A DNA stretch of 63,128 bases, the filler included, from Folioceros fuciformis (taxonomy: Eukaryota), in assembly GCA_049999805.1 (NCBI GenBank). It is 4 parts of 4 records of this genome, joined end to end, with 100 filler letters (N's around TTAATTAATTAA, not from the genome) between each part and the next. Parts side by side here need not be neighbours in the genome. Positions count along the whole stretch, not along the records: positions 1 to 28,239 come from JBNGIO010006030.1; 3 more parts are not named here. One strand, 5' to 3'. The translations under genes and the position numbers were made by a program. Of this stretch, positions 1-50,939 are shown piece after piece (position 1 is the first letter of the stretch; every line of letters begins with the position of its first letter). The notes beneath the pieces are model-generated. The model did not search any database. It was given only the letters and a program-made list of their open reading frames with translations, and had not been told where the DNA came from.

Positions 1-150
<150 letters not shown>

Positions 151-175
151 ACTGTGTCTCGAGGTCTCCGTAAAT

Positions 176-191
176 GGTGTATTTTTACACC
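176..191 (+). promoter_or_regulatory. Histone-type 3' UTR stem-loop (GGTGTA-TTTT-TACACC)
   Basis: Perfect 6-bp stem with 4-nt U-rich loop, 25 nt after the H3 stop, flanked by AAAT and ACC; second copy at 13048-13063. Hairpin is seen; function is inferred. Confidence 0.7.
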
Positions 192-419
192 ACCTGTCCA
201 AGGAACATCTGTCAGCTCGAACACTGAATTTTGAATGTCTTTCAGTTTCGCGATGCAAGCAGATGTCACAACCCTACCCTTTCCTGCTCCATCTTAAATT
301 TGGGACCCTCGGGGTTTTGTTTCGGTTTGTCGATTTGAATTGTCCATTTTCATGGCGTTTGCACTTTTTTCTCGAGTCACACACATGCAACTTGAATGTA
401 TGTGCTTGTAGCAGGGCAA

Positions 420-849: not shown

Positions 850-2990
850 AGTTTAGTTTTCTGTGATTGCTTTGTCTGATAAGGATGTAGATCATCCATG
901 TTATAACCTCGTATTGTTTATGAAACCTCAAAAACCTTATAAAGTAATAATAAAAATAAAGCATATTGAAAGTTAAAAGTAGAAAAGTAAAAATTAGGTT
1001 CAGAAATATCTTGATGAAGAAGGAAGTATGTTATCAAAAACAAAGGCTCTTGATAAGAAAATTATATTGATAAGTAGTATCTTGAGATGAGTAGTATATA
1101 TGATTTCCCACTTTAGTAAAGCAAAAGCTCTTGATAAGGAAATTGTATTGATAACTAGTATCTTGAGATGAGTGGTGTATATGGTTCCCCACTTTAGTAG
1201 TGGCCTAATTGTAGAGTATATAAATGCTAGGGCTAAGGTTTTAAGACACGTATGAAGACAAAAAGAAGCCTAGTGTGGAGTGAATAAATGAGATTTGAGG
1301 CTATAGCTTTTTTTTACACTGTCAGTAGAAAGGGGGTATTACTTAGTTAGTATGAGAGCGAGGTTTATTCCTCCAAGATGGTTAAGTGCCAAAGGATTCC
1401 TCCAAGATAGATGGGCACCAAAGGATGCAAATATGGGGGGTTTCTCCTAATCCCTCGTCTCAACAACTTGAAGAGAATCAAATCGAGGAGATGCACCTAG
1501 CGATTAGGCAGACCATTCGAAGAAAAATATGAAGCTTGGAAGATACAGAGGATGCTTGCTTTACGACAAATTCTTCCCAAACTTCTCCAAGATTTTGGGA
1601 AAAAGGCAAGAAGGATCTAAAGCCTACAACTCTATGAAATAAGGATGTTGAAAACAATCAAGGTTCTTCTCACATCTTCAACGTAGTTCCGAGAGCAAAT
1701 CTAAAGTTGGCTATGCCAAATAAGTATGAGGGAGTAAGAGGTCTACAAGCTATTGATTCCTAGATTTGCTTTATTGGAAGCTATCTTGCCTCGTCTCGTC
1801 TTGAGCCTAAGCACTACTTAGGTATTGTTGGCAACTTCCTAAGAGGATACGCTTTGGTGTAGTGGCGAAGTTACTATACTAATGTAGCCTAGGGTAATTG
1901 AGCACATACCATCACAAATTAGGCATCTTTTAAAAGAAGCCTTGAAGCATTTCCAACCTGCAAAGGCTTCGTTTGAGCCAACAACTACTTGCTAATATAA
2001 AGCAAACAAGGAGTGCATGAGAATATGTAAGTACCTTCAGTGAAGCTATTATGCATTGTACTTTAATGAGTGAAGTTGACAAACTACGCTCTTCATGGTT
2101 GGTTTGAAGTCTACAGTCAAGATGAGTAGTCTATATGATTCCTAGATTTAACAGTGGCTTAGCAGCCCTACCCAACCATGAAGCAATGTAGTTTGTCAAC
2201 TTCACTCATTAAAGTACAATGCATAACAACTTCATTGAAAATTGAAAGCACTTACATATTCTCTTATAGTATCGTATCTATCTGCTTTATATTGTTAAGT
2301 ATTTATATTGTCAAGTAGTTGTTAGCTCAAATTACTTCTTCAAGGCTGCTTAAAAGATGCCCAATCTGTGATGGTGTATGCTCGATTACCCTAAGCTACA
2401 TTAGTCTAATAACTTTGCCACCACACCAAAGGGTATGCTTTTTAGGAAGTTGCCAATAGAACTTCCTAAAAAGCCAAATGAGGGCAAGATAGCTTCATTT
2501 GGCTAGAGCCTAAGCGGTGCTTAGGCTCTAGGCCAAATGAGGGCAAGATAGCTTTCAATAGAGTAAATCTAGGAATCAATAGCTTGTATATCCCTTACTC
2601 CCTTATACTTATCTGGCATGACCAACTTTAGATTTGCTCTCGGACTACTTCGAAGATATGAGAAGGACTTTGTCTTCAACATCATCATTTCGTAGAGCTA
2701 TAGGCTTTAGATCCTTCTTTGTCTCTTTCCTAAATGCTATCAAATCTTGGAGAACTTCACACAATACTTTTGGAAGAATTTTGCAATCATTGCTATTCCT
2801 ATTAGCAATCCTTAAATATTTACCACAATAACTGACTAGCAATCTCTATTTTAGATCTTTAGTGTTGTTTCATGTTATGAAGATGTAGATCATCCTCTCT
2901 ATCAACCTCCTCACATGGCTTCCATGTTATAATCTTATTTTTTTTGATGAAACTTTAAAAACCCTGATACGACACAAAAGTTTAGACATA
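850..2990. mobile_element. Degenerate Ty3/gypsy-like LTR retroelement remnant with gag fragment duplicated in inverted orientation
   Basis: Stop-ridden gag-like peptide (MPNKYEG...GNFLRGYAL..W...EYVSTFSEAIMHCTLMSEVDKL) at ~1710-2110; inverted copy 2174-2785; similar direct repeats near 884-940 and 2882-2970. Confidence 0.65.
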
Positions 2991-4200: not shown

Positions 4201-7200
4201 CTACCTTATTTTTGCGCTAAGAAGACTCACTAGCTCTTTCAGCCGGGCCGCCTGGACGTGCCTTGCATCCTCTACCAGAAATGTGTGGACATGTTGGGCA
4301 TGCTCGATCCAGCTTCGGCCAGGCTCCTTCCAAGAAACCGCATGGTGTCTCAAGCTATCTATCTGCTCTGCATAGTCCGGCATACCAGCATCAGCGTAAA
4401 TGCTTGACATGAGTCCATAAGCAGAAGCGTGGTCAGGTTCTAAGGCCCAAGCAGCGTCGAAGGCTCTCCTTCCTAAAGACACATTGTTATGCTTCCTGCA
4501 GGCGCTTAACACGCACAGCCACATCGGCAGGTTGGGCTGCATGGGCATCTGCGCAAGAAGGTCTTCTGTCTTATCGAACAATCCTGCCCGCGCGACAAGG
4601 TCTATCACACATGCAAAGTGCTCCAGCTCCGGGAGGATGGTAAGGTCCCTGGTCATGGTTTCAAAGTACTCCAGGCCCCTGTCCACCATGCCAGCATGAC
4701 TGCATGCGGATATTAATGCGAGGAATGTCACTCCATCCGGTTGGACGCCTGCCACTAGCATTTTTTCGTAGCATTGCATAGTACGTTCCCAATTTCCGAG
4801 TCGGGAATAAGAAGCTATCAGCGCGTTCCATGCCATAACGTTGTGGCAAAGGAGAGAGTCGAACACACTTTGAGCATCCACCATGCTTCCACATTTCCCA
4901 TATGCGTGGATGAGACTAGTTGCCATGCAAAGAGTGCACTCCACTCCAGTGTCAACAATACTCTGGTGGGTCTGCAGACAGTTGTTAAGAGCTCCTGTCG
5001 AGCTGCATGCCTTCAGCACGGAAACGTAGGTGGCCTCATCGGGACTCACGCCTTCGGCCTGCATCTGAGCAAACAGTTGCACAGCTGTGTCTCCATGACC
5101 CTGCTCGACATGTGCCGCAATCATGCCAGTCCATGACACCACATTACGGTGCGACAAACTATCGAACACCTGCTGTGCATCCTTGATGCTGCCACACCTT
5201 GCATACGTGTTTACTAGTGTACTACCGACAAATGTATCAGTATCACAATCCCTGCTCACAGCTTCAGCATGTATTTTCCTCACCTGTTGGAGTAAACCTG
5301 CCTTAACAACCTGGCCATCAACGAAGACAGTTTTCTCCTTTTCAGCTATCAAACTGAGGGCTTGGAGAACACAAACAAAGGTTCGAGCATCTGGGACGAC
5401 CTTTTCCTCACGCATCTGTTGGTAAAGCTTTAAAGCTTCATCTCCTTGATCCTGTTTCGTGTACGCGGAAATCATGGCAGTCCATGACACCACATTGCGG
5501 TGAGGAAGTCTCTCAAACATGTCTTTCGCATCCTTGATGCTTCCACATTTTGCGTATATACTCACTACGGTGCTACCAACAAATACGTCTAATGCCAAAC
5601 CCTGCTCCGAAGCATCAGCATGTAACCTCTTTCCCAAATGCAAGGCCTCTTCTTTCACATGTTTTCCATCTTTACTTTCTTCTTTATCTGCGAGGCTCCC
5701 ACATGCTTGGAGTGCACACACTATGGTCCGGGTATCTGGCCTTATCCCTGCCTCTCGCATCTGTTGATAGAGCTGCAGGGCCTTATCTCCTTGGGTCTGA
5801 TCAGAATACGCTGTCATCATAGCATTCCAAGAAACGATATCACGGTGGTGCAAGCTGCTGAATACTTGGGCTGCATTGCCTATGCTGCCACACTTTGCGT
5901 ACATCGTAATCATAGAGTTGCAGACAAATCTGTCAGACAGGAAACCAGTTTGGTGGGCTGCAGCAAGGACCTCTTGCCCTTTATGCAAGGACTTTATTTT
6001 CACATTTTGTCCATCAACAACTATACTTTCCTCCTTGACAGCGATGCTGCCACATGCTTGGAGAGCACTGACAAAGGTGCGGGCCCCAGGCAGGAAACCC
6101 GCCTCTTGCATTTGACTGTAGATCTCCAAGGCCCTTTCTCCTTGGTCCTGCTGTGCATACGCTGCAATCATGGCAGTCCACGACACCACATCCTTCTGCA
6201 ACATGCCAAACACTTGTTCGGCATCCCTCATGCTCCCACACTTACCATACGTACTGACCAATGTGCTACCAAGAAACGAATCAGACTGTAAACCCCTAAC
6301 CGTAGCCATAGCATGTATTTGCCTCACTTCTCGCAAGCAATCCACTTTCACATTTCCGCCATCCACAGAAGCACATTCCTCCTGATCTGCAAGGTTGCCA
6401 CATGCCTGTAATGCACTGACAAGAGTTCGACATTCCGGCATGACCCCTAGCGCTTCCATCTGCCAGAACACGTCCAGCGCCTTCTCACATTCGTTCTGCT
6501 GGACGAGTGCGGCTATCATCACAGTCCAAGACACCACATCGCGCCAGGATAATTTCTGGAAAACATCCTCGGCCTCCTCAATACTACCACACTTCGCATA
6601 CATGCTAACCAAGGTGTTCCCAACAAAGATGTCAGAATCACACCCCATGCTTACAGCTCTAGCATGTATCTTTCTGCCCAGCTTCAGAGCCTCAACCTTC
6701 ACATTTCGGCCATCAACTAGCGTTCTTTCCTCGCTTTCTGCAAGGTTACCACAGGCTTGCAGACAGCTGACAAAGGTCCGTGCATTTGGGGCAACCCCTT
6801 CTTCTTGCATTTGGCGGTAGATCTGCAAGGCTGTTTCTCCTTGGTCTTGCTGGGCGTAAGCTGAAAGCATTGCGTTCCACAAAACCACATTTCGTTGAGG
6901 CAATTCATCAAACACTTGCTGAGCCTCCCGTGTGTTCCCGCACTTGGCATACATTGTGACCAAAGCACTCCTCACAAATAGGTCTGATGCACATCCATGC
7001 CTGCAAGCATCAGCATGTAAGCGCTTGCCTGTGTCCAAGTCCCTTAACCTGGAGCATGCTTTCAGCAAACTAACAAACGTGTAGTTATTGGGTTTGACTC
7101 TTTCCCGGAGCATTCGATCATAGCAGGACACAGCCTCTTGCCACTGTCCAGCATTGCAATACCCTGAAATTATCGCTGTCCAAGAGAACACTGTTCGTCG

Positions 7201-7473
7201 GGATAACTTTTGAAAGACTTGTAGCCCATCCTCAAAACCCCCACACTTGACTAGAGTGGTCACCAGGAGATCGCTAAGAAAGCTGTTGGATTCCAATCCA
7301 TGCTTCAACAAATCAGCATAAACGAACTTGGCTTCAGCAAGGTCCCTCCTTTGCATGCATGCCTGCAACAAGTCCTTGAAAATGTGCACAGGAGGCACAG
7401 TTCCCTGCTGAATCATGTTAGCCTTGATGAAAGGCATGCTTACTTGATCGAAATGACGTGTGGTCTGCCACAT
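4201..7473 (-). CDS. PLS-class PPR protein with long LL motifs; E1-E2-E+ (PG box, no catalytic DYW)
   Basis: Repeated P-L-S units (MYAKCGSIEEA, VVSWTAMI); L motifs with ~13-aa inserts; ends KEPGRSWIE...HTFLVED; first in-frame ATG 7473 (ORF open from 7533). Confidence 0.93.
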   Translation of the reverse strand: MWQTTRHFDQVSMPFIKANMIQQGTVPPVHIFKDLLQACMQRRDLAEAKFVYADLLKHGLESNSFLSDLLVTTLVKCGGFEDGLQVFQKLSRRTVFSWTAIISGYCNAGQWQEAVSCYDRMLRERVKPNNYTFVSLLKACSRLRDLDTGKRLHADACRHGCASDLFVRSALVTMYAKCGNTREAQQVFDELPQRNVVLWNAMLSAYAQQDQGETALQIYRQMQEEGVAPNARTFVSCLQACGNLAESEERTLVDGRNVKVEALKLGRKIHARAVSMGCDSDIFVGNTLVSMYAKCGSIEEAEDVFQKLSWRDVVSWTVMIAALVQQNECEKALDVFWQMEALGVMPECRTLVSALQACGNLADQEECASVDGGNVKVDCLREVRQIHAMATVRGLQSDSFLGSTLVSTYGKCGSMRDAEQVFGMLQKDVVSWTAMIAAYAQQDQGERALEIYSQMQEAGFLPGARTFVSALQACGSIAVKEESIVVDGQNVKIKSLHKGQEVLAAAHQTGFLSDRFVCNSMITMYAKCGSIGNAAQVFSSLHHRDIVSWNAMMTAYSDQTQGDKALQLYQQMREAGIRPDTRTIVCALQACGSLADKEESKDGKHVKEEALHLGKRLHADASEQGLALDVFVGSTVVSIYAKCGSIKDAKDMFERLPHRNVVSWTAMISAYTKQDQGDEALKLYQQMREEKVVPDARTFVCVLQALSLIAEKEKTVFVDGQVVKAGLLQQVRKIHAEAVSRDCDTDTFVGSTLVNTYARCGSIKDAQQVFDSLSHRNVVSWTGMIAAHVEQGHGDTAVQLFAQMQAEGVSPDEATYVSVLKACSSTGALNNCLQTHQSIVDTGVECTLCMATSLIHAYGKCGSMVDAQSVFDSLLCHNVMAWNALIASYSRLGNWERTMQCYEKMLVAGVQPDGVTFLALISACSHAGMVDRGLEYFETMTRDLTILPELEHFACVIDLVARAGLFDKTEDLLAQMPMQPNLPMWLCVLSACRKHNNVSLGRRAFDAAWALEPDHASAYGLMSSIYADAGMPDYAEQIDSLRHHAVSWKEPGRSWIEHAQHVHTFLVEDARHVQAARLKELVSLLSAKIR

Positions 7474-7633
7474 TCCATTCAAGTACGTGACCTCACCATC
7501 ACCGTTTGTCCTGAGTGGTGGATCGCATCGCAATCCTCCACCACAGGTAGATAATGGTTCTCATCATCCAAAACCATCCAGTTTGCCAAAAGCATTGCGC
7601 GAGGTCGTCACTTGCGCTGCGGCTCCAGGCACG

Positions 7634-10600
7634 CTACTGTGCTCGCTTCTCGCCGACGCCCACAGGAACATGGCTCTCCGCGTCTTCTGCGATTGCCTCC
7701 ATGAGGATCCCCAGCTGCGCATAAATCTCTTTTCTATCACAATGCCTCTCGTCCTCCACGACGAATGTGTGCACCTTTGAATCATACTCCATCCAAGTGC
7801 GACCGGGTTCCTTCTTTGCGCCTGCCCTGAGCATTCTCCTCCTCAGTTCTGCTTCTTCTCGGTAATTGCCAGCTGAAGCATACGTTTCTGCCATAAGCAC
7901 GTGCGCGGCAGCATTTGCGGCATCCAACCTCACGATGGCCTCGAATGCACGTCTACCCAATTCTACACTTCCATATGTGCGGCAGGCACCAAGCAAAGAC
8001 ATCCACACGACAATGTCAGGCTCTGCTGGCAGCTGTTTAATAAACTTCTCCCCTTCATCTAAGCACCCAGAGCGGCAAAGCAGATCTACCATGCGCACAT
8101 AATGCTCTACCTCGGGGGTTTGGGGCATAGATCTGAACAGGAGTAGTCCGTCTTCCAGTAAACCAGCATAGCTGCACGCAGATAGTAACGATAGAAAAGT
8201 GACATCATCTGGATGCATCCCCTCTCTTCGCATCAGCTGAAAGAGGTCCAGCGCCTCTCGACCACGGCCATGTTGAGCGTAGCCTGCTATCATGGCGTTC
8301 CAGGACACCAAATCTCGCCTCTCAGCTCCATCAAATACTTTCCTAGCACACTCCAGGCTCCCGCATTTCGCATACATATCCACAAGACTGTTGACGACAG
8401 TCACATCTGATTGCAAGCCCTGTTTCAGTGCCTGAGCATGAACAATTTTACCCTGACTCAGTGCTGCCACACTTGAGCATGCCTTCAGGATGCTCAATAA
8501 GGTAACCTTATCAGGAAGCATGCCCTCATGCTGCATGTCCCGAAAGATTTTGAAGGCCTCCTGGCCATCCCCCTGTTGCGCATATCCTGCAACCATAGCC
8601 GTCCAGGTAACCAGAGGCCTTGTTGACAACCTGTCAAACAACTTACGGGCATCCTCCATGTTCCCACATTTACCGTACATATCAATGAGGGTGCTGGCAA
8701 CAAAAGTATCCAGTTCCAAATTAGCATCCACAGTCTGAGAATGGAACCACTTGCCTTGCTCTAAAGCAGATGTGGTAGAACAGGCTTTCAGGCAGCCGAC
8801 AAAAGTGTAATTATCTGGCTGCAGCCCCTCTTGTTGTATTCCATTGAAGAGACGACACGCCTCATCACAATCGCCATCCTGTGCATAACCTAAAATCATC
8901 GTATTCCAAGACGCCAAATTTCGAACAGGCATTCTGTCAAACACCGTGCGGGCATCCTTCATGCTCTCACACTTGCAGTACATGAAGATCAGAGTGTTTC
9001 CGACAAGCACATCGAGCTCCAACCCATTGGCAATGATGTAGTCATGAATTACCTTACCCTGGTCAAGGGCTTCACTGCTAGTGCATGCCTTCAGTAAGCT
9101 CACCAGAGTGAGCTTGCTAGGATATGTGCCCTCAGATTGCATGCGGTTGAACAGATGGAGAGCCTCCTCACCATTTCTGTCTTGAACATATCCAGCAATC
9201 ATTGTAGTCCACGTAATCTGTTCCCTTTCCTGCAACGTATCGAACACCGCACGTGCATTCTCCAGGCTATCACATCTTGCATACATATCAATGAGACTGT
9301 TACCAACAACTAAATCTGAGTCCAGACCACTCTGAAGAATCTTGGCATGAAGAATCTTTCCTTGATCCAGTCCCGAACATGCTTTCAACATGCTTACGCA
9401 CGTAAACTGGTTTGGGTGCAGCCCTTCCTTTTCCATTTGATGAAAGAGAGTCAGTGCATCCTCACCACGGCCAAGCTGGGCATAGCCTGCAATCATCGCA
9501 TTCCATGTCACCAGGTCCCTTCTAGGCAATGCGTCAAACACTCTACGACCACCATCCACATTTCCACACTTGGAATACAAGTCAATAAGTGAACTGGCAA
9601 CAAACAGATCTGACTCTGCACCCAATTTCCTCACGTGTGCATGAACCACCATGACCTGAGCTAGAACTGCTGAAACGGAACATGCTTTTAGGACTTGCAC
9701 AATTGTCACGTTGTTTGGCTGCAAACCCTCCTGCTCTAGTTGTAGGAAAAGTTCCATAGCCTCAGAACCACATCCAAGCTCAGCATATCCTGCAATCATT
9801 TCATTCCAGGAAACCAGATTCTTCACTGCCAAAGAATCGAACACTTGTCGGGCATCCCCAACACTCCCACATTTTGCATACAAACAAATAAGTCTAGTGC
9901 CGACATCTACATCTACCAAGAAACCGTTCTGGACAAAGTGATGATGAATCAGCTTCCCCTGATCAAGTGCTGCTAAGCTAGACCCAGCCCTCAAGATGCT
10001 CAAAAATGTCACCTTGTCTGGATGGAAGCCACTCTCCTGCATTGCATAGAAGAGCTGAATCGCATCCCACCCATGTCCATGCTGGGCATATCCTGCAATC
10101 ATGGCATTCCACGTTGCCACATCTCTTTTCGGCAGCCCATCAAATATTTGTCTTGCATCTTCAAGTCTTTCACATTTTGAGTAAATGCCAATGAGGGCAG
10201 TGGCGATGAACAAATCTGACTCCAGACCAGTTTCCACAGCATGCGCATGAAGCCTCGTGATCTGACCAAGGACTTCGAAACCAGCACTGGAACATGCTTT
10301 GAAGACACTCAGAAGAGTGATTCTGTTCGGTTCAACGCCCTTGTCAAGCATCTGGTCGTAAAGTGCTAGGGCCTCGTGGGAGTTCCTGTCTTGGGCATAT
10401 CCGCCCATCATTGCATTCCATGTGACAAGGTCCTTCTCTGACAATCGATCAAACAGAGAGCGAGCATCAACTAAGCTTGAACATTTCATGTACATCTCAA
10501 TAAGAGCGCTGGCAACAAATACATTCAATTCAAGACCTCGTTGCATGATATCTGTGTGGATCAATCTGCCGGCTGTCAGTGCTGCACTCCTTGCACAGGC

Positions 10601-11281
10601 TTTGATAACAGCTACATAGGTATAGCCATCAGGTTGTAAGCCTGAATCTTGCATTTTGAAGTACATATTCAGTGCCTGCCCAACTTGATCATGCCTGCTG
10701 CAGGCTGCAATAATCGCCACCCAAGCAAACTTGTCCGGTGCGAGCAGCTTATTGAACACACCCTGCGCTTCGAGCAGACTGCCACAAGCAGAATACAACT
10801 GAATAAGGTGGTACCCAAAAAATGTGTCAGATTCAAGCCCCTTCTTGGTGATTAGAGAATGAACCTGCCTTCCTGTGACCCCATCCTGCTCCTTAGTACA
10901 CCTAAGCAACAGATCGTGCAATAAACGGGTCACATCAGAACCACTTTGAGCGAGATCACTAACAGTCCTGAAGGCATCTTCCAGGGGTCCAAGCTTGCAC
11001 AATCTGATCAAGTTTGCACGATTGAGAATTCTGCTCCGAGCAGATCGTTGTGAAGCGGGGGTGTTATCAGCGTGAGACGTTGTACCCTCCTCTCGTTGCC
11101 AAGCTACAGACTTTTCTTCATGGCTCGTCGCTTTGGTGCCAAGGTGGCCCCTCAGATGAAAATCACGAATTACTGAAGGATTCAAACGCCAATTGGAAGG
11201 ATACCGTATACGAAGAACGAAATGTGTCTCCAGAACAAGCCTTGTTGCTTTCAACTTGACCAAACAGGTTAAAAATAGCAT
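7634..11281 (-). CDS. PLS-class PPR protein, E1-E2-E+ (PG box, no catalytic DYW)
   Basis: Long intronless PLS array; C-terminus KKEPGRTWME...HTFVVED with no HxE/CxxC; first in-frame ATG 11281, start uncertain. Confidence 0.93.
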   Translation of the reverse strand: MLFLTCLVKLKATRLVLETHFVLRIRYPSNWRLNPSVIRDFHLRGHLGTKATSHEEKSVAWQREEGTTSHADNTPASQRSARSRILNRANLIRLCKLGPLEDAFRTVSDLAQSGSDVTRLLHDLLLRCTKEQDGVTGRQVHSLITKKGLESDTFFGYHLIQLYSACGSLLEAQGVFNKLLAPDKFAWVAIIAACSRHDQVGQALNMYFKMQDSGLQPDGYTYVAVIKACARSAALTAGRLIHTDIMQRGLELNVFVASALIEMYMKCSSLVDARSLFDRLSEKDLVTWNAMMGGYAQDRNSHEALALYDQMLDKGVEPNRITLLSVFKACSSAGFEVLGQITRLHAHAVETGLESDLFIATALIGIYSKCERLEDARQIFDGLPKRDVATWNAMIAGYAQHGHGWDAIQLFYAMQESGFHPDKVTFLSILRAGSSLAALDQGKLIHHHFVQNGFLVDVDVGTRLICLYAKCGSVGDARQVFDSLAVKNLVSWNEMIAGYAELGCGSEAMELFLQLEQEGLQPNNVTIVQVLKACSVSAVLAQVMVVHAHVRKLGAESDLFVASSLIDLYSKCGNVDGGRRVFDALPRRDLVTWNAMIAGYAQLGRGEDALTLFHQMEKEGLHPNQFTCVSMLKACSGLDQGKILHAKILQSGLDSDLVVGNSLIDMYARCDSLENARAVFDTLQEREQITWTTMIAGYVQDRNGEEALHLFNRMQSEGTYPSKLTLVSLLKACTSSEALDQGKVIHDYIIANGLELDVLVGNTLIFMYCKCESMKDARTVFDRMPVRNLASWNTMILGYAQDGDCDEACRLFNGIQQEGLQPDNYTFVGCLKACSTTSALEQGKWFHSQTVDANLELDTFVASTLIDMYGKCGNMEDARKLFDRLSTRPLVTWTAMVAGYAQQGDGQEAFKIFRDMQHEGMLPDKVTLLSILKACSSVAALSQGKIVHAQALKQGLQSDVTVVNSLVDMYAKCGSLECARKVFDGAERRDLVSWNAMIAGYAQHGRGREALDLFQLMRREGMHPDDVTFLSLLSACSYAGLLEDGLLLFRSMPQTPEVEHYVRMVDLLCRSGCLDEGEKFIKQLPAEPDIVVWMSLLGACRTYGSVELGRRAFEAIVRLDAANAAAHVLMAETYASAGNYREEAELRRRMLRAGAKKEPGRTWMEYDSKVHTFVVEDERHCDRKEIYAQLGILMEAIAEDAESHVPVGVGEKRAQ

Positions 11282-11629
11282 GGTGACAACAACATTGGAG
11301 CCTGTTGCTATGTCCTGGTGAACCAGATCTCCAAAGGAGGTGACCGTTAACAGCACCAGATGGACAAAAACACTCCAATTTCATCACTGCTGAACGATGA
11401 GCCCTGAACGGGTCACAGTCATGGAACAGTCAGATGTCACAACCCTGCCAATGAAGCTGCCCAGATTCCTCTTCGGATAGACCACAAATCAACCTCACTA
11501 AATCTTCGCTCCTAGATCTCTACCTACAAAGTCCTAGTCACGCCGAGGGCCCCAAGCTTGATTCCCTTGACCTGACAAACTTCAGAGCACTACAGTCTTC
11601 AACTTGAAACCCTAGCGACCTCAGAAACT

Positions 11630-12188: not shown

Positions 12189-12358
12189 TTTCCCGCCCAA
12201 CGATTTGAACGCTTCTCATTTGAACTGCGACCACGCAAGACCTTCCTGGAATCCTACTGCCTGGAAACAAGATAGCAGGCGGGGCGCCCTTTTCACTAAC
12301 GGCGACTGCATTATAACTCCGTCGCATCTTTGAGAGCAGAAGTCCCGCCCGCGGGAAA
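12189..12358. promoter_or_regulatory. Two E2F consensus sites (TTTCCCGC at 12189-12196 on +, 12351-12358 on -) in the H3/mS33 divergent promoter
   Basis: Exact matches to the plant E2F site; TATA-like CATAAAAAGG near 12414; binding not demonstrated. Confidence 0.55.
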
Positions 12359-12525
12359 GTTAAAAACTTGCTGGTTTTGAATGTGGTCCTGGCTTCCCTC
12401 CTCTCCTCTGGCCCATAAAAAGGAGTGCCTGCCCCTTCCTAAGTCCCGTAGCAAGTTTGCGCGTCGTGCTGTATTCCTCGTTGTGTCTTACCTCAAGCCC
12501 TTGTTCATTGACGTGCGATTGGTGA

Positions 12526-13017
<492 letters not shown>

Positions 13018-13047
13018 GCAGAACCGTAGGATTCAGCTTCCGTAAAT

Positions 13048-13063
13048 GGTGTATTTCTACACC
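13048..13063 (+). promoter_or_regulatory. Histone-type 3' UTR stem-loop (GGTGTA-TTTC-TACACC)
   Basis: Perfect 6-bp stem, UUUC loop, 30 nt after the H3 stop, AAAT/ACC flanks. Confidence 0.72.
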
Positions 13064-13129
13064 ACCTCTCCGAGTAAAATCTGTCTGCTCAATGCTAAGT
13101 CGTGATGCAGGTCCGCGAGGATACAGAGG

Positions 13130-13290
13130 CAGATGCCTGTGTAATTGCTGCATTCCCAAGCAAGATGCCTGTGTAAGTGCTGCATCCCCAAGCAAGATGC
13201 CTGTGTAAGTGCTGCATCCCCAAGCAAGATGCCTGTGTAATTGCTGCATCCCCAAGCAAGATCCCTGTGTAATTGCTCCATCCCCAAGCA
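13130..13290. repeat. 32-bp minisatellite, about 5 copies
   Basis: Head-to-tail unit aagatgcctgtgtaa(g/t)tgctgcatccccaagc. Confidence 0.95.
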
Positions 13291-13579
13291 AAGCCTATTG
13301 GGTTCGAATGCGTGAGAGTACTACTCCATAGTAGAGACAATCAACAATGTTTTCATCCTAAATTGGACAGCAGTATTACCCGACCTTGAATGGTAACTAC
13401 TGGAAGGGTAGTTATGACTGTTAAAAATCTGACGATATTCTCCCAAGACGACTACTTCTTGCATAGAAAACAATTGCAGTCATGTGCATGTGACCAAAGA
13501 ATGTAATATTGTAAGACAACAAACTGAAGAACACATCCTTTTCGGACATGTGCGGATCATATTGCTGAAAAAGCCTGTT

Positions 13580-16500
13580 TCAATCGCTCTTCTTTAGTGC
13601 CTGCGCCACCACCAAGGCAACCACACTAATCATTCCTACGCCACACACCACAGTTGCAGTAGCAAGGCCAGAATTGGTCGTTTTCATGCTCCCAACCAAA
13701 CATTCCCAACGACCCCTTTCATTTTTCTTCTGCAAGTTAGGATGTGTAAGATTATCCCGCAGTATGGAACTTAAAAGATCAAGCTGGGTGGTTATGTGCC
13801 GCTGGCCCCTGGCAATTATCCTAACCTGCAGACGGATTGAAAAGAATGTCCAGATCTTAGTGAGTAAAAGATGACCAGCGAGAAGGAACGAATAATGGAA
13901 AGCGGTAAGGGGGGGGAGTAGACCTCGTCGACCATATTTGAGTCAGTTGCAGGTGGTGCTGCAGCATTATTGAGGGCCAGTGCATGACCATTTGTGCAAC
14001 CATTGCCATTCCCATTACCATAATGAGAACCACCACTGCTCCCAAATGAGCCAACAGCAACCCCTGAAACATTTGCTCCAGTAGGTGCCTGACGACCTGT
14101 ATTCGAGAGACCTGTTATCTTGCCTTCCAGTTCAGAAACTCGCGACAGAAGCTCATCCATTCTTTCACTTAGACCAGCTAGCTGATCACACATCCGCAGA
14201 TACCCCTAAAACACCTCACACCAATCAGAACAAAACCTGCCATCCCTCCACTTCCTTCCCAAGTCATCTATACAGCGGTGAGGGTGATTATGCGGAACCA
14301 GCAGGTACCTGGTCACTTAAGGCTGGGGCAGGAGAATCAGGAAAGGCTCGATCATCGAATCGTTTAGATAAAGGAGTAGGTGTCCATAAAGGAGTAGGTG
14401 TCACTCCCTTTCTCTGCGTCCTTCGATCTCCAGGAGCATCACTGTTCAACATATACAGTGTGTTAACTTGTCAAAATTGACCAACATAAGCAGAGTGCCA
14501 ATCACGAAACAATGAATTCATGCCTGCGGTAGTTCCAGTCATAAGAACTGGAAATACCTGTCGCTCTTGCTCTCGTTCCGGGACCAGCTGAAGCAGGTAA
14601 GGGTAACCAAGTGAGCACTACAGGCCTATGCATTAGCTGACTGCCAAAAGTCAAGAGGATAGCAATACCTTTTGCTGTACAAGTTTCTTATTCCAGGCTT
14701 TGTCTCTGAGAGCCAAGAAAATGACGGAAGTGGGCTGGATACAAGGTTGTCGGGCATGCTCAGTTTGGTTTTCAAGTCTTCCGGCAGGGCCTATGCACAA
14801 AAACAGGTATGATGGAGCCATGATAAGCATGCAGCAGGACCAGCAGGAAAGCACCATACACGGGCAGACCTCAAGAGCAGACGAAAATTTACAGATTGTA
14901 CTTACCGTAATTTCTTTTGTCAGCTTTTCCAACTGAATCTGCTCGATGTATGATCGAGGAATATACGTGCCATCGAGACCCAATTTTTTCGCAACGTCAG
15001 CAACAACTGCTCGGTCCTTGCCTTGCACCTGCACAAGGCAAACAATACTTAGCACCAACAATACCGTCACGTTAAAGGAGGAGAAAGTGCAGCCCTTGAC
15101 AGATGGACACACCTGTATGTACTTGCGTTGCAACTGCTCCAGCTGGTCAATCTTCACACTAACCCTCTCGTCTGAAAATAGATGACTGTTGCGCTTGAGA
15201 ATGGTTGCCATTGAGTATCCCAGAGCCATTAAGCCCCCCAGGAGGCGGACGCTGACCTCAAAAGTTATCCGAGGGGAAATAATAAATGCATTATCAGTAA
15301 CCCATTCCTGGCCAACAAAAAGACAAATTAGATCCGAACTTACATCATGCAATGCAGATTCGATGTAGAACAGATAAATTTGTGTGTTTACCTCAAACAT
15401 CAGGCTGTACTTGCCTTCACGATTGCGCATTCTCAAATAAGACTGACAGGTCTCTGGATCTTCACCAGGTGGCAGCAAGTAAATGTCGTAGGTTGCCTCA
15501 GTGGTCTCTGTGTGATCAGGACCCAAGACCTCCTTAATCTGCTCTTCAGACACACATCTTGAGGACTGCACATCAGCAAGCAGGAAGGAAGTATGAGGAC
15601 GACATGATGCAACAGCAACTCCTGATCAGAAGTTTTCTCTTGACTGACGACACTGCACCAAATTGCGCATAACATCGACAGAAAACGAAAGTCACCTTGA
15701 GAATGTAAGTAGCAGTTTGAAATCCAGAAAACGGGTTGAACTTATTGACAATCTTTATGTGCGCAGTCTCTAAATCTGGCTCAATGAAAGCTTTGTACAT
15801 GGGATAGACCTGCCAGAGAGGCACAACAGTTAGCATTCCCGTCCACTTCAGTACGACAGAAATTAAATATACCCACAGCACAAATTTGACCAACAAAGTG
15901 ATTAGTTAAAATGAAGCTCAAGTCCCTTGGACAAAACGCACAGTTTCTGATATCTGATGGATAATATCCTCAGGAGCTTGCCCAGATCGATCGATGTCAC
16001 GAAGTACCCTCTTAACAAGATCAAAGTGCACCCCTCCAGTGACTGAAACACGTAAATCTAGAAGTGGACGGAGCTTTTCACTAAGCGCGTAAATACCCTC
16101 CACAATTACAATGCGAGACGATGGCACATCCAAGTGGCTGCAAGATAGAGTGCTGTTAATGCACCGTCCTTTCCTTTCAACACAAGATAGCATGCATGGC
16201 AACAGAAAATATGCCAGGCATCAGACCACCATGCTAACACGACGAGACCTCTTCAAGGTGGCCGGACCTGTATCCAACGCGTCGACTCTGCTTAAAGTCG
16301 TATATGGGAACTTCCACGGACCTGCCCGCCTTGAGATTCTCGAGATTATCCAGAAGAGTGTCATAATCTGTGAGGCGGGGATCTGCAAATCAAAACCCGT
16401 TCCCCAGCACACATGAGACAGATATCCCAGTCCTACTTTGCTAAAAAGCAATACGACTGAGCCTCAGGATACTAAAACAAGTCTCCAAAGCACTGTGGCC

Positions 16501-18392: not shown

Positions 18393-18473
18393 CGTCAACA
18401 GCAGGGTTCGAACCTGCGCGGGCGAACCCAACAGATTTCAAGTCTGTCGCCTTAACCACTCGGCCATATTGAC
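18393..18473 (-). tRNA. trnS-UGA: tRNA-Ser (anticodon UGA)
   Basis: GTCAATATGGCCGAGTGGTTAAGGCGACAGAC-TTGAAA-TCTGT, long variable arm, GGTTCGAACCC, G discriminator, downstream T run. Confidence 0.96.
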
Positions 18474-25349: not shown

Positions 25350-27830
25350 AATGGAGTCGCGGAGCAGAAGATACAAAGCCTTTTGGAAGCAGCCAAGTGC
25401 ATGTTGTTTCACAGTGGCTTGCAGGTCAACTTTTGGGGAGAGGCTGTCATGACAACAACCTATGTGTTGAATAGAGTTCCGACAAAGGCCGTACCTAGTA
25501 TGACACCAGAGGAAGCTTGGTCTGGTATAAAACCTGATATCCAACATTTGAGGGTTTTTGGTTCCGTGGTCTACGCTCGTATCCCGAAGGAGAGCCGGAC
25601 CAAATGGGATGCTAATGCAACGAAGTGTCTCGTGCTTGGCTATTCAGATGCAGTGTAAGGCTATAGGCTATACAATCTTACTACGAAGAAGGTCTTTTTT
25701 AGCAGGGACGTTGTTTTTAGGAGGTTGTCGAGTTGATGCCTGGAGTGGGCCCTTCAGATGTTCCATCTGCCAGAGATAGCGGTGTGCCTTCTCCAACTAG
25801 CCGCCACCTTGACCTGCCTGATCCGATGCCTGACGACTCTTCTCAACCTTGTGACATAGGGGGGGAAGGGGGAGACACTCCTAATGTCCCTACGGTTGAA
25901 GACGTTGTTGGAGCCTTACCTCTAGCTGCAGATGTAGATTGCGACATCGAGGGGGGCAGGAGTGAAGCTTCCGATGTTTCTGAAGAAGGAGCAGACTATC
26001 CTGTTATAGCACCACAATCGGAATTACGTAGATCCACCAGGTCGCGTAAGCCTTCTCAAAGGCTTATAGACTCCATCAATGGATGTGTACAAGAGGAGCT
26101 AGCATGTTTTACAGATGTTGAAGAACCCCAAAGCCTAACAGAAGCGTTACAAGGTCCAAAAGCAAAGGAATGGAGAAAAGCTGTAGATAGTGAGTACAAC
26201 TCACTCATCAAAAATAAAACATGGACAATAACTCCTCTACCTTCTAGAAGGAAAAGTATAGGGTCTAAATGGACCTTCAAGATCAAGCGAAAGGCCGACG
26301 GTAGCATAGAACAATACAAGGCGAGGTTAGTAGGGAAAGGGTATACGCAAGTCCTCGATGTGGACTATACTGACACTTTCTCTCTTGTTGCTAAGATAGC
26401 ATCTATCCGAGCCCTTCTCACTATCGCAGCTGCCTTCAATATGGAGATACATCATATGGATGTTCAAACCGCTTTTTTTAATGGTGATCTAGATGAAGAA
26501 ATATATATGGAACAACCAGAAGGGTTTGAGGTACCAGGACAAGAAGGCGAAGTTTGTAAGCTGCAAAAGGCTCTTTACGGTCTCAAACAATCAGCCCTTG
26601 CTTGGTATCGTAAGCTCTATAATCACTTACAGTCTAAAGATTTCAAGAGAACTAGCGCTGATTGGAATATATATGTGAAGCAAGTGCAAGACATGGGCAA
26701 GCTCCATTATTTCTTAGGAATAAAGGTAGCAAGACAAAGGATCAACAGGGTAATCTCCTTAAGTCAGCAAACATATGTGGAGAACATACTGGAGCGTTTT
26801 GGAATGCAAGATTGTAAACCGATAAGAACGCCCATGATCCTCAACAAGAAACTGTCAAAGGAAGCAAATCCTACAAATGAAAACATGACAGAAAAAAGTA
26901 GACAAAAATCTTTACCAGCGTACTGTTGGCTGTCTCACCTATTTGGCAACAAGCACAAGGTCAGACATCACAGAGGCATTGGGGGTTGTGAGCCAATTCT
27001 TGGTCAATCCTCAAGAACAGCATTATCAAGCAGTCAAGAGAATTTTCAGGTATCTACAGGGTACAAAGCACTGGAAATTGACTTACCTAAATCAAAAAGA
27101 AGAAGCCTAGGTTGTCGGATTTTGCAATTCAGATTGGGCAGGAGATATCGATACCCGCAAGTCTACCACTGGATATGCCTTCATGCTATTCGGAGAAGCC
27201 ATCTCGTGGAGCAGTAGACATCAACCCAGTGGGAGTGTTAAGCATGATTTATGTTGAGATTAATTAGTGCTAATCTAGCTTATTGAGTTTGTACTAATTA
27301 GTAGTAAGAGTGATTAAGGTTATGATTAATATATATAGCTTATTAGACTTTGTTATGTTAGGCAGAAAAGGTATTTTAGGGTTTGGGGTCATTTATCCCA
27401 TATTGGGCACGAAATGAGAGTGCCACCTATAGGTCCATAAAAGAAGGGATGAACCCACCTAGTATTTGTTGTCTAACTCCCTCTTCACTTGTATTGTGTT
27501 GTTTCTTGTAATTCTCCTTTTATTTGAGTTTAAGAGTTTAAGAGCCTTGTTATAGTGCTCTTATTTTTGCGATTCTGCATCTTGCTTCAACTAACTTGTT
27601 CTAACCTCTTTCGAGTGGCGGGGGTGACATCTCAACAAGTAGCACTATCCTCTACAGACGCAGAGTACATGGCAACCTCAGGTGACATCTCAACAAGTAG
27701 CACTATCCTCTACAGAAGCAGAGTACATGGCAACCTCAGCTGCAACAGTGGAAGCCATATGGCTTCGTAGATTGCTCGAAGAGATGGGATTCAAGCGGAA
27801 GGGAGCGACCCTCATCTTCAACGACAACGA
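25350..27830 (+). mobile_element. Ty1/copia pol fragment (integrase end, RT, RNase H), degenerate
   Basis: FWGEAVMTTTYVLNRVPT, KARLVGKGYTQ, HMDVQTAFFNGDLDEEIYMEQPEG, LYGLKQ, VALSSTEAEYMA; YVDD region deleted. Confidence 0.95.
27252..27637. mobile_element. Solo-LTR-like insertion inside the Copia RNase H
   Basis: TGTTGAGAT...ATCTCAACA terminal inverted repeat interrupting the coding sequence; left end may be 27236. Confidence 0.65.
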
Positions 27831-28239: not shown

Positions 28240-28339
28240 NNNNNNNNNNNNNNNNNNNNNNNNNNNNNNNNNNNNNNNNNNNNTTAATTAATTAANNNNN
28301 NNNNNNNNNNNNNNNNNNNNNNNNNNNNNNNNNNNNNNN
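28240..28339. other. Artificial scaffolding linker (N44-TTAATTAATTAA-N44); also at 55400-55499 and 61320-61419
   Basis: Same 100-nt linker three times. Confidence 0.97.
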
Positions 28340-30036
28340 CCCTAATCCGGTCTAGTTGACATGACCTAGGGAGCTGCTAAACCCTGGATTATGTCAAACG
28401 TTCAGTCACACCTCGTGGCACAGCCCACCCTAAGAGAAGCCAACGGCAGCCGGCGGATGGTGGACCCTCCCATGTCTCCCACGCTCTGCGGGGTCTGCCA
28501 TCATCTTCCCTATGTCCGGCTGCAAACTTGGGCTACAGCTTGTACTCAGGGTCCCGTGTGCCCAACCCAAAGCCGCTCCTGATCAAATTGCGGGCTCCTG
28601 GCGCCGGCCTCGCCTCAGTCCCCTTATCCGCATTCTGCTCGCGGGTCCAGTTTGTCGTCGTTGTCGTGAGAGCATTTAGGTTATTGACTGCCTCCATGGT
28701 CACTTAGTCTGGTACCAAAATGGTTGTCACGATGTAGCGGGAGTTGCGCAGCGCGCTCCACAAGCACAAGCTGACTTTCTGGAGCTGAGGAGGCGGATCC
28801 TACTATCGCTCTTTTCAACCTCCCGAGGTACCAACATTTTGGCCCCCATCTTCTTCTTCTTCTTAAGAGTATGGAGAGGGGCGGTTTGATAGATGACGGC
28901 CCCAGTGTGTCACAGCAGCAGGGCCTTGTCAGCAATGTCAGTATCCTCAAAGTTTGGAGATGCATGATTGCCTCACGAGGGTAGGCATGAGGCATTCTGC
29001 AGCTGACAATCCCCCTTGTGGTGGTTTCGCAGCTTACAGCGAGCTAGTCGGCCACGTCGGAAGCTGATAATGGTCGACAGTCTTTGGTGGGAATGGTGAA
29101 GTACGATAACACCGTGGAGTGTGGCGTGAAGGAACGTGTGGGAACATTCATATACCGGAGAATCAGCCTGCAGTGCAGAGGGTTGCAGACCGAATGGTGG
29201 GGAGGAGGATGAGAGGTCTGAGTCCTTCTAGGAGAGCAGCATCAGCACCAGAAGTAGTTTTAAGATAACAGGTTGAGATAGTCAGGTGTCAGGACCGTGG
29301 TCACAAAGTGTCTAGGCAGCTATGTATGGCGGAAGATTCACGGCACTATGCACAGTTGGGAGGAGCTCTATCTTCATCAGGTCGTTCAGTACGGACTGGA
29401 TTGTGGTGAAGACTAGGTTTGCCCTGCCTCTTGGAGCGTGCTGCATGCAGTTTGGTCAGTTTGTGTTGGTTGCCAGGAGCTGGGGACTGGCTAGGGTGCC
29501 GCTCTTCTTATCTGGTGGTGGCTCATGGGTCGGAAACTGCAAGCTTGCAGAATTTCTTGCGCATGGCCAGCCTATTCGCCGACCATGCGCACTGGTTAAC
29601 TTGTTTCGTGGTATGCAACCCTCAGACTAGTCTCGGCATCGAACGAACGAGGTGTCGGCATTCGAATATCTCTGCTACTTATTCTTCTTGGAGCAGTTTA
29701 TCCTGGTAGCTTCCCAACCTCGTTGACCAGAATTCCCTTGTACTCTCCCCCTGTTTCCTCCTTTTTTTTCTTTCTCTCTCTGTTGGCATCTCTGCCCTGC
29801 CTCCTGTCCCCAGAGGTACTCTTTGTTTTGCTCCAAGTTACGAACCATCAAGCTGCTGTCTCCCCGGAGCACGGCAAGTAAGCACCTACAATCTGCTTCT
29901 TGGATGGTTTCTTCGTCAGCTGTTGCAGTGCTCAGCCACAGTCATGCCACTGTGAGTTAGTGATTGGGCGGTGTCCCAAAGAATCTCTGTTTGGATAGAA
30001 ACTACTACCTATAGCTTGGCGGGGATAGAAAATTTC

Positions 30037-31755
30037 ATGGAGTCAGGCGGTCATGGCTTAAGCAAAGCAGATGCACAGCGAGAGTCAGGTGACCGCAGTT
30101 CAGAGAGTGGGTTGGCAACGCAGCAGTTGGGACAGCAGTATCATCCACAACAGCAAGAATCTCAGTCGAGGGCCCTTTCGGGGTATGGAGCACCCTCAGG
30201 TTCGGCAATATTAGAGCAGCAACAACAGCACCAGCAACTCCATTCTCACCAACATTCCCTCCAGCAGCAGCAACAGCAGAGCCCAGGGCCTCACATATCG
30301 GGGGGTACCCTTGCGCAGGCAATGGCAGCCATGGGCGGTGCAGGTGACCCACCTCTAGGGATGTCTAACATCGGGCAGGAGTACTCACAGGAGCAGTCCG
30401 GTGGAGGCATGTCTGGCTTGGGTGGGCTTTCCATGTCTCGAGGTAATCAGCAAGAAATATCGAGTGGAGCAGCAGGAAGTGGAGCAGTCCAGGGTCCTCA
30501 GGATCAGGGTCAAACCCCTCCTAAGAAGCCTGCACCCAAGAGATCCTCCACGAAGGATAGGCATACCAAAGTGGATGGTAGGGGTCGCCGCATTCGAATG
30601 CCGGCCACCTGTGCAGCTAGGATTTTCCAGCTTACCAGAGAGCTGGGTCACAAGTCCGACGGCGAAACGATCGAGTGGTTGCTACAGCAGGCCGAGCCAG
30701 CCATTATTGCTGCCACTGGAACGGGTACGGTACCGGCTTTGAGTAGTACATCTATGCAAGGGCGCATGAGCCAGCAGGCCAGCATGTCGGCTGGGGCCGC
30801 CCGTCACCCTACGCTCCATTCAGGCATGGGGATCGGAGGGATTGGACCTTCAGAAGCCGACCGGATGCAGGAGCATGTACGTCGAGGCGAGTGGGAGCCC
30901 GATGACCACCGCGTACTGGAGGTGAACCGCGCCATGGAGGCGAACAGGAGGATCGCCGCTATCAGTCACGGGGACTCTGGACTTAGTCCCCACGAAGTCA
31001 TGTTCCAGCACGAAGGCTTAATTAGCTCCGACGCTGGAGAAGCGTTAGGGCTGGGAGAGTCGTCCGACAGCAGGTTCAAGAAACGACACAGGGGCGGGGG
31101 CCCGCTCGCGCGTCTTAAAGACGACCCGGAGCCTGTCCGGCCCGTGCGGTCGCAGGCCAGGCCTGGAGTCCCTGGCGGGATATCGCAGCCGGGCTCTACA
31201 GGCATCATGTCTGCCATGTGGGCGGCGATGGGCCCTGCGAGTAGCGGATCCATGCCTGGAACCATCTGGATGTTGCCTGTGAGTGCCGGCTCCAACACAC
31301 CAGCCGTCATGTCCGGCCCCTCGGAGCAGCAACTCTGGACGGCGTACCCCCCAGGAGCCTCTGGCGGCGCCATGTATAGAATGGCAGCTCCTGCTGGGAC
31401 ACAGATTCAGCTGGGGTCTGGCGGGAGCGGGCAGTCGAATCTGAATTCACCCAGTAGCCTGATAATGCCGCTGACAGCGTTGCCCAGTGGGATGCCCAGA
31501 ATCAGCATTTCCGGGACTTCGGGCCTGGAGCTACAAGGTGGACACCAAGGTCACCATCCCCTGGGCAATATGCTGCTACAGCAGGGTTCGCAGCAGCTTT
31601 CCGGGGCTGGGTTGGGACTGGCAGGTGACGGTCATCTGGGTATGCTGGCTGCGTTGAATGCCTACACCCGAAACCTCAACCCCGACCACCAACAACATAT
31701 GAGCTCTGCGCATCAGCAGGGGGATAGCGGCGACGATAACACCAGCTCGCAATAA
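30037..31755 (+). CDS. TCP: Class I (PCF-type) TCP transcription factor, intronless
   Basis: [59 protein letters not shown]; first ATG 30037. Confidence 0.97.
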
Positions 31756-33494: not shown

Positions 33495-34808
33495 TGTTGA
33501 GCTATCGAGCTCTATATGAGCTAAACTCATGTGGTGTTAGTTATCCCAGTTGGGTTCATACTAGACTAGTTCTAGTTATTAGTGAACTTAGGATAGTGTA
33601 GATTATCCCATATTGAACTTGGAAGTTGTGTAGCCCTAAATGTACTACTTAAATGGAGACCTCGGACCTCCATAGTAAGACAGTGGTGATGTGTATTGTT
33701 TTCATGGTTGTGATCACCAATACCACCCTCTCTTCTCTCCTCTCCTCTCCTACACTTGCACGTAGACTGGAGTCGATCCTATTGACATGGTATCAGAGCC
33801 CGGTGCAGGCGATCTTGCTCGGCGTAGGAGGTGCTGCAAGAGGCAGCAAGAGTGCACACCAGAAGCTAGAGCAGCTACGAGAAGTTGGAGCAGCTTGGAG
33901 GGAGATCGGCAGCAAGCGTCCCGGCAGCTAACTCTCATATCGGTGTGTGTAGGAAGTGAGGAGAAGGGCGACAAGGCCCTGTCAGCTTACTAGACTAGCT
34001 GTTGATCCCCAGAGCTCTGTGGAAGGGCTGACAAGTGGAGGCAACAACTGCAATAGCCTCAGCAGCTGCAAGAAAGTGTGCTAACCCTAGCTTGGCAGCA
34101 GGGAAGGAATTGACAGGAAATCTCACGGGAGCTTTGTGGGCAGACAGTCAAGAGTCTGTAAGGACACGGAGCTTGAGACAATCTGGTTCACGCAAGGCAG
34201 CGTGATTCCGCACCAGATTGCTCTTAGGAAGAAGAGACTTAAGGTCTTGTGAGTAAAACTCCAGTCAGAAGCAGTCTGGTTCTTTCAGACATTTATCAGG
34301 TGTGAGTACTCAAGAAAGGATTGAGTGTCAACCTTGAGTGGTGGCAAGAATGGCCAGTGACAGTATTAACCAGATCGTACAGGAGAAGCTGGACAAAAAC
34401 AACTTCCATGCCTGGAAGTTTCGTTTTACAAACTTTCTTATGGGAAAGGGTTATTGGGACTACATTGATGGGGAGCATGAAAAACCCCCTGTAGTACTTG
34501 AACGGAATGCAACAGCGGAGCAGATTAAGGCGCTGAAGGATTGGAGTCAAGGATCTCGGAAGGTCATGTATTGGCTGTCAATCAGCATTCATGACACCAT
34601 GATTGGGCACATATAGGATGCAGAGTCGCCCAAAGAAGCATGGGATGAGTTGGTAAAACTCTATGAGACTAACACGAAGGCGAGAAAACTGCAGTTGAAG
34701 AATGACTTTCAACACAGTTATGAAGAAGAACTTATCAATCAATGAGTACGCNNNNNNNNNNTCTCCTCTCCTACACTTGCACGTAGACTGGAGTCGATCC
34801 TATTGACA
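33495..34808 (+). mobile_element. Ty1/copia element: 5' LTR 33495-33787, PBS, gag start, gap, 3' LTR end
   Basis: TG...CA LTR; tRNA-iMet PBS TGGTATCAGAGC 33788-33799; gag KLDKNNFHAWKFR..GYWDYIDG; identical LTR 3' end 34762-34808; TSD GTTTA. Confidence 0.93.
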
Positions 34809-42130: not shown

Positions 42131-42202
42131 GCCGTGGTCCCTCTCCTTCTGATCCGAGCACATGGGATTAAGCCTGAATCTGTCAGGCGTGCAGAATCGC
42201 GA

Positions 42203-50919: not shown

Positions 50920-50939
50920 GTCCCAAGGCAGCAAGCTGC

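Follow-up and report, generated by a model that had tools for sequence, protein, structure and literature searches.

Both histone H3 genes in the stretch of Folioceros fuciformis DNA analysed here are followed, shortly past the stop codon, by a hairpin that is rare, that is placed as histone stem-loops are, and that is probably a histone 3' stem-loop of the algal type. The reading that we favour, and to which we assign a probability of around 0.55, is that these replication-type H3 genes carry the green-algal version of the histone mRNA 3' stem-loop, and that the hairpin acts as a working 3' end signal of the SLBP type. The stretch (hereafter the window) is 63,128 nt long and consists of four record parts of assembly GCA_049999805.1 joined with filler. 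The first part, positions 1-28,239 (JBNGIO010006030.1), contains both genes.

The H3 genes and the conserved island in their 3' flanks

The two genes and the elements in their vicinity are:

1-150, plus strand: 3' part of H3 copy 1, truncated at the window start; stop codon at 148-150; protein identical to the corresponding part of copy 2
167-218, plus strand: 52-nt 3' UTR island of copy 1, a direct repeat that is 88% (46/52) identical to 13039-13090
175-192, plus strand: copy-1 hairpin, U-GGUGUA-UUUU-UACACC-A, with its 6-bp core at 176-191
193-218, plus strand: post-hairpin conserved stretch of copy 1
713-809 and 13924-14020, minus strand: duplicated exon, 86% identity between the two copies
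12607-13017, plus strand: H3 copy 2, complete and intronless, 136 codons plus stop by translation; stop codon at 13015-13017
13039-13090, plus strand: 52-nt 3' UTR island of copy 2, the counterpart of 167-218
13047-13064, plus strand: copy-2 hairpin, U-GGUGUA-UUUC-UACACC-A, with its 6-bp core at 13048-13063
13065-13090, plus strand: post-hairpin conserved stretch of copy 2 (CCU, a purine-rich run and AUCUGUC-N-GCUC), delimited by the conservation between the paralogues and an unalignable flank beyond

A segmental duplication includes both H3 genes, which are paralogues, as the first-pass annotation had cautioned. Where the coding sequences overlap (1-150 of copy 1 versus 12868-13017 of copy 2) they are 94% identical, and the nine differences within the 150 nt are all synonymous, affecting 8 of 49 third positions and 4 of 25 four-fold sites. 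The copy-2 protein is 96-99% identical to the H3 genes of contigs with canonical stem-loops. A screen of the window for Lys/Arg-rich ORFs recovered H3 as the sole histone genes; the other histone classes were not found in it. The minus-strand exon, which was duplicated along with H3 and converges on it, contains Gly/Asn-rich and coiled-coil-like stretches; its two copies are located at 572-814 and 13816-14205 (both minus strand).

When 600 nt of 3' flank from each copy were aligned locally, the 52-nt island was the single alignment obtained. The spacers that separate stop and island on the plus strand (16 nt in copy 1 versus 21 nt in copy 2) are unrelated, and the remaining 3' flank, about 500 nt in copy 1 and about 830 nt in copy 2, is unalignable up to the duplicated minus-strand exon. 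Within the island, the first 30 nt, which comprise the hairpin and its flanks, are identical at 29 of 30 positions, the sole change being located at loop position 4, while the following 22 nt are identical at 17 positions and thus show five differences. The first-pass annotation had described a block that varies at loop position 4 alone, that is preceded by unrelated sequence and that ends at ACCT. The first two statements hold true, the former for these 30 nt, and the third has to be revised given that the conservation extends over 52 nt.

The diverged spacer sets the island apart from the coding sequence, a pattern that favours selection acting on the island over a gene conversion spreading from the coding sequence. 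The latter is an unlikely source of the similarity, since such a conversion would not skip the spacer. Some caution is in place: given the change rate at four-fold sites (4/25, about 16%), we calculate by hand that 30 nt would show a single change with a probability of about 0.04. Moreover, the two copies are non-independent paralogues and are worth one observation and a half, not two. The stretch that follows the hairpin (193-218 and 13065-13090) is, judged by its conservation, a candidate second processing element.

Starting 68 nt past the copy-2 hairpin there are five tandem units of 32 nt (13131-13290), which are 94-97% alike and each contain TGTAA(T/G). Nothing resembling these units was found in the 3' flank of copy 1.

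Structure, rarity and position of the hairpins

The stem starts 25 nt past the stop codon in copy 1 and 30 nt past it in copy 2. Both stems count 6 bp, open with two G-C pairs and carry a loop of 4 nt with U at positions 1 and 3 (UUUU and UUUC, respectively). The 3' flank reads ACC in both copies; on the 5' side, a U at -1 directly precedes the stem and positions -4 to -2 are AAA. The description of the hairpins in the first-pass annotation proved accurate, including the caveat that the pair closing the loop is A-U in both copies and not U-A. According to ViennaRNA, both stems reach 7 bp through an extra U-A pair (175/192 and 13047/13064). The predicted fold has an energy of -8.9 kcal/mol in copy 1 (z -2.98) and -8.0 kcal/mol in copy 2 (z -3.58), and 0 of 200 and 2 of 200 shuffled sequences, respectively, folded equally well. 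The hairpin is kept in the minimum-energy fold of the 100-nt contexts, although neither context taken in full is exceptionally stable (z -1.72 and -0.83).

Within the window the element is rare. When up to two mismatches were allowed, GGTGTATTTYTACACC had exactly two matches, versus 0.03 expected, and none of 100 shuffles reached two. Perfect hairpins with a 6-bp stem and a 4-nt loop occur at 15 positions per strand, and among these a GG start together with a CC end is found in the H3 pair only. Likewise, the H3 hairpins are the only ones on the plus strand that combine the GG/CC base with U at loop positions 1 and 3, AC on the 3' side and at least three A in the preceding 5 nt. The window background for any perfect 6-bp/4-nt hairpin amounts to 2.4e-4 per nt, which equals 0.024 per 100-nt flank.

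Comparison with animal-type stem-loops

In metazoans, the stem-loop of replication-dependent histone mRNAs works together with SLBP, the U7 snRNP and 3'hExo. The window hairpins have in common with the metazoan stem-loop as described by Rfam family RF00032 (Histone3) the 6-bp stem, the two G-C opening pairs, the UUUC/UUUU loop, an A followed by CC on the 3' side and a location 21-50 nt past the stop. Their 5' flank is A-rich as well, but not directly at the stem, which is preceded by a U that is able to pair. In contrast to the metazoan form, they have U-G-U-A instead of pyrimidines at stem positions 3-6, and their top pair is inverted. The search with the Histone3 model that had been proposed as a check left both H3 hairpins unmatched: RF00032 gave no match in the window at the gathering score and, with E-values up to 10, none on 12900-13300, 1-400 and 13026-13086, where it should be considered that Rfam E-values are multiplied by 4227 families, so that a weak match would go unlisted.

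To obtain reference loci, a prokaryote genome collection and a viral collection were searched with the H3 protein and the eukaryotic contigs were taken. Of the 80 loci recovered, 63 included the H3 C-terminus and stop, and 59 of these had a flank of at least 70 nt. A GG-opened perfect 6-bp/4-nt hairpin was present 21-50 nt past the stop in 54 of the 59, a range that includes the distances observed in the window. The five loci that lacked such a hairpin were L047, L068, L069, L077 and L079, where L047 and L068 have stem-loops with a loop of 3 nt and 5 nt, respectively, instead. No H3 locus recovered from the two collections resembled a land plant. Many of the assemblies behind L015-L094 are labelled as bacteria or archaea although histone contigs of eukaryotes are present in them, in some cases with as many as six H3 repeats in tandem and canonical stem-loops; these contigs are contamination by the host or by co-sampled eukaryotes.

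The 24 distinct reference stem-loops compare to the window hairpins as follows:

Base of the stem: GG/CC in 24/24; window GG/CC
Top pair: U-A in 22, C-G in 2, A-U in 0; window A-U
Base preceding the stem: C in 21, U in 2, A in 1; window U
Loop: UUUC in 12, UUUA in 6, UUUU in 4, other in 2; window UUUU and UUUC
3' of the stem: ACC in 11, ACA in 7, other in 6; window ACC

There were 25 distinct stretches of hairpin plus flank, and 23 of them, mostly animal-type H3 stem-loops, were used to make model R1; L086 was left out as a hold-out, and the first, non-GG hairpin of L068 was omitted too. On the window R1 placed copy 2 third of seven matches (9.6 bits, E 3.8) and did not list copy 1. Judged by this animal-type model alone the hairpin would thus be indistinguishable from background, and it is the location that makes it stand out.

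Similarity to a green-algal form of the signal

A closer counterpart was found on contig L068, which carries a divergent H4-H3 gene pair with both genes followed by U-GGUGUU-UAUUA-AACACC-ACCA. Considering one neighbouring gene, a coproporphyrinogen oxidase fragment whose best named matches are chlorophyte (Parachlorella and Chlamydomonas, 77%; then Volvox, Gonium and others), L068 is probably a green-algal contig. Arms of the L068 type follow an H4 gene on L147, and GGUGUU-UUUC-AACACC follows an H3 gene on L086. What we call the green-algal form is defined by the hairpins of these three contigs (U-GGUGU-N/N-ACACC-ACC) and not by a published Chlamydomonas sequence, although a histone 3' palindrome is cited in the literature for Chlamydomonas and Volvox. 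The form on these contigs has in common with the window hairpins the U before the stem, the GGUGU 5' arm, the ACACC 3' arm, the ACC that comes after it and the distance of 25-30 nt from the stop. The differences concern the top pair, which is U-A in the algal form and A-U in the window, and the loop, which measures 5 nt on L068 and L147 versus 4 nt on L086 and in the window. Within the stem, the two-sided change of the top pair from U-A to A-U, by which pairing is kept, is the sole difference between the window and the algal arms.

On L068, the hairpins of H3 and H4 have a CUUGGAA sequence 13-16 nt downstream (1285-1310, plus strand, and 1-15, minus strand, in L068 coordinates), which may be a second processing element. 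The copy-1 hairpin is followed by AAGGAAC at a comparable spacing.

Four histone-linked hairpins (H3 and H4 of L068, L147 and L086) were used to construct covariance model R2, from which the window was excluded. Applied unfiltered to the whole window, R2 returned eight matches, with copy 2 ranked first (17.9 bits, E 0.043), copy 1 second (16.1 bits, E 0.12) and the next match at 10.9 bits; given that the model is based on four sequences, these E-values are rough. Animal stem-loops score 15.8-22.4 bits under R2, and the window hairpins fall within that range. The model also assigns 20.9-28.2 bits to unrelated bacterial palindromes that were fetched by the window's own motif (L001, L005, L007, L008, L010, L012, L013 and L014), and therefore likeness in sequence counts only jointly with the histone context. 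Similarly, a metagenome scan with AATGGTGTATTTNTACACCA identified 14 loci, none of which (0/14) adjoined a histone gene; several of them are located just upstream of short ORFs and are presumed to be bacterial operators.

We regard the hairpin as a strong histone mRNA 3' stem-loop candidate, and more specifically as one of the green-algal rather than of the animal form. The suggestion in the first-pass annotation that the lineage may retain a stem-loop/SLBP pathway for histone 3' ends is partly supported. The two top ranks under R2 and the distance from the stop agree with this suggestion; the lack of a match to RF00032, the background-level score under R1 and the A-U top pair do not.

Relation to published work on land plants

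A recent survey (Genome Biol, March 2026; PMC13130582) was based on nanopore reads of 20 species. It reports tail-less histone mRNAs for Chlamydomonas, the moss Physcomitrium patens, the fern Adiantum capillus-veneris and the cycad Cycas debaoensis, and in the moss, the fern and the cycad they are accompanied by stem-loops and SLBP. The paper further states that RF00032 matches 33 of the 51 genes with poly(A)-less histone mRNAs, that SLBP was kept in the Chlamydomonas, moss, fern and cycad lineages and is absent from Selaginella and angiosperms, and that separate losses of the pathway are proposed for Selaginella and the flowering plants. The species set lacks hornworts and liverworts and has Selaginella as its sole lycophyte. 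The premise of the first-pass annotation that land-plant histone mRNAs are described as polyadenylated is therefore outdated. Since PMC13130582 documents histone stem-loops in non-flowering land plants, the present case is a further example and not the first; the divergent top pair is its single unusual trait.

The genes described in PMC13130582 share with the window genes their occurrence in a land plant, the intronless H3 and a 6-bp/4-nt hairpin near the stop. There the system was shown by RNA and SLBP; the window hairpins were read from DNA. The histone mRNAs of angiosperms and Selaginella are also products of land-plant genes, but these are reported in the same paper to be polyadenylated, with SLBP absent, and a conserved hairpin would be unexpected there. 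A full-text literature search with the two hairpin 16-mers, in DNA and RNA spelling, gave no occurrence; the supplementary stem-loop table of PMC13130582 may contain the same stem.

With respect to recognition, PMC10388802 specifies that SLBP binding needs a guanine as the second base of the stem, which makes the sole base-specific contact, and that the minimal SLBP-binding RNA measures 20 nt and includes two adenines on the 5' side and one on the 3' side. A preprint (10.64898/2026.10.14.759114, October 2026) reports that a stem G-C pair and a loop uridine are kept in bryophytes and gymnosperms. The detection as outlined there accepted any 6-bp/4-nt hairpin, with one mismatch allowed, within 300 nt. 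We estimate from the window background (2.4e-4 per nt) that such settings result in about one chance match per flank before the folding filter, and consequently the plant counts of the preprint deserve caution.

A model for 3' end formation and its alternatives

If the favoured reading is correct, the nascent H3 transcript would form a hairpin of 6-7 bp with a 4-nt loop 25-30 nt past the stop, to which the SLBP of the plant would bind via the second-position G, the flanks and the U-rich loop. Cleavage of the transcript would then follow a few nt past the stem, possibly aided by the conserved stretch of ~22 nt downstream. The resulting message would lack a poly(A) tail, and its stability and translation would track DNA replication. 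To our knowledge, a U7-like guide that reads a second processing signal has not been demonstrated in any land plant. A more far-reaching version, which we regard as unlikely, would have a divergent stem-loop, with the inverted A-U top and a possible seventh pair, end the histone mRNAs in a lineage outside the 2026 survey, where the specificity of SLBP has shifted and the ~22-nt stretch is read by a guide of that kind.

Two further observations bear on the 3' end. No AATAAA is present within 600 nt past either stop, and the first classical variant in copy 1 is an ATTAAA at 468 nt past the stop. Plant poly(A) signals are loose, and hence the lack of AATAAA constitutes weak evidence. Furthermore, one sequencing run, guessed to be RNA, contains 0.90 of the sampled words of 12450-13450; runs X4-X20 contain 0.05-0.12 of the sampled words and were given no weight. 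If the former is indeed RNA, transcripts reach several hundred nt past the hairpin, and these could derive from the minus-strand gene that converges on H3 or from read-through H3 mRNA. We take this coverage as mild evidence against a clean end at the stem-loop.

The alternative that deserves most attention, although we judge it somewhat unlikely, is that the hairpin, though derived from a histone stem-loop, has ceased to define the 3' end, so that the H3 mRNAs are polyadenylated downstream and the hairpin serves as an internal element for stability or translation, or is used in a fraction of the transcripts only. PMC13130582 offers precedents, in that moss, fern and cycad genes give both forms of mRNA and that Cycas panzhihuaensis kept its SLBP gene while its histone mRNAs are fully polyadenylated. 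The presence of 0.90 of the words out to 13450 in the supposed RNA run points in the same direction. Nevertheless, that the run is RNA is a guess and there is a convergent gene further downstream, AATAAA is absent from the 600 nt past either stop, and the island ends 27 nt past the stem, as would be predicted if processing took place there.

It is less probable still that the element has nothing to do with the histone stem-loop and is a regulatory feature specific to these two H3 paralogues, be it a palindrome that functions at the DNA level, a component of a poly(A) signal or a site bound by some other RNA-binding protein. The failure of RF00032 and R1 to pick out the hairpin is compatible with such an origin, as is the occurrence of an identical palindrome core in bacteria as presumed operators, by which the sequence alone is not diagnostic. 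In addition, the block contains UGUA and U-rich runs, and UGUA is among the plant far-upstream poly(A) motifs mentioned in PMC13130582. A poly(A) enhancer, however, does not need a perfect 7-bp stem, and the combination of a GG/CC base, a UUUY loop, an ACC flank and the canonical distance from an H3 stop is unique in the window, where the hairpin is also the top match of R2, an independent model of histone hairpins. Finally, it is hard to maintain that the block is functionless, common to both copies through recent duplication or gene conversion and with a hairpin that arose by chance. The genes are paralogues in a segmental duplication, and the low synonymous divergence of their coding sequences (8/49) makes 30 nt with one change mildly unusual. 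Yet the spacer and the flank beyond the island are unalignable, which indicates that neutral sequence has already diverged, and a chance hairpin is expected at 0.024 per 100-nt flank even if none of its additional features is demanded.

Other features of the window

Besides the H3 genes, the following features were annotated:

4201-11356, 36966-39875, 42134-45694, 47518-50934 and 52344-55085: six PPR genes, recognized by long ORFs and domain matches
18393-18473, minus strand: tRNA-Ser (UGA)
25733-27217, plus strand: copia-type reverse transcriptase fragment (RVT_2)
29971-31755, plus strand: TCP transcription factor ORF

The six PPR genes are intronless, belong to the PLS class and all have an E motif; two contain a DYW deaminase domain and four do not. 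For one PPR protein the best named matches are from Diphasiastrum (a lycophyte), Adiantum and Ceratopteris (ferns), with at most 46% identity, and unnamed matches reach up to 57%. In a protein atlas the nearest clusters are located in Streptophyta. The earlier assignment of the sequence to a land plant is borne out by these clusters, by the six E/DYW PPR genes and by the TCP gene.

A possible 5' UTR intron of H3 copy 2 is predicted from the sequence within 12522-12602; its donor would be the GTGAG near 12522-12531 and its acceptor the TCGCAG (12596-12601) directly before the ATG. The window has two exact TTTCCCGC sites, at 12189-12196 (plus strand) and 12351-12358 (minus strand), 418 and 256 nt ahead of the H3 start codon, and the second is embedded in the palindrome TCCCGCCCGCGGGAAA. 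We take these sites to resemble E2F sites, and as such they would suit S-phase expression. The looser TTTSSCGS pattern is not enriched over the whole window (13 found versus 12.2 expected).

The window contains 374 N in total. Six runs of 44 N, arranged in three pairs 12 bases apart (28240-28339, 55400-55499 and 61320-61419), represent the filler between the parts, and a run of 10 (34752-34761) and a run of 100 (59943-60042) are masked or unresolved repeats.

Implications

Given that the general point is already in print, the gain is incremental. If the favoured reading is confirmed, RF00032 misses the form of the signal that is found in the green lineage, and surveys based on that family undercount. 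The inverted top pair would also make it possible to probe, in a naturally occurring variant, how the upper end of the stem is recognized by SLBP. Moreover, upon confirmation, Folioceros would add one more land-plant lineage that keeps the ancestral, tail-less ending of the histone message, which would help to date the loss of the pathway.
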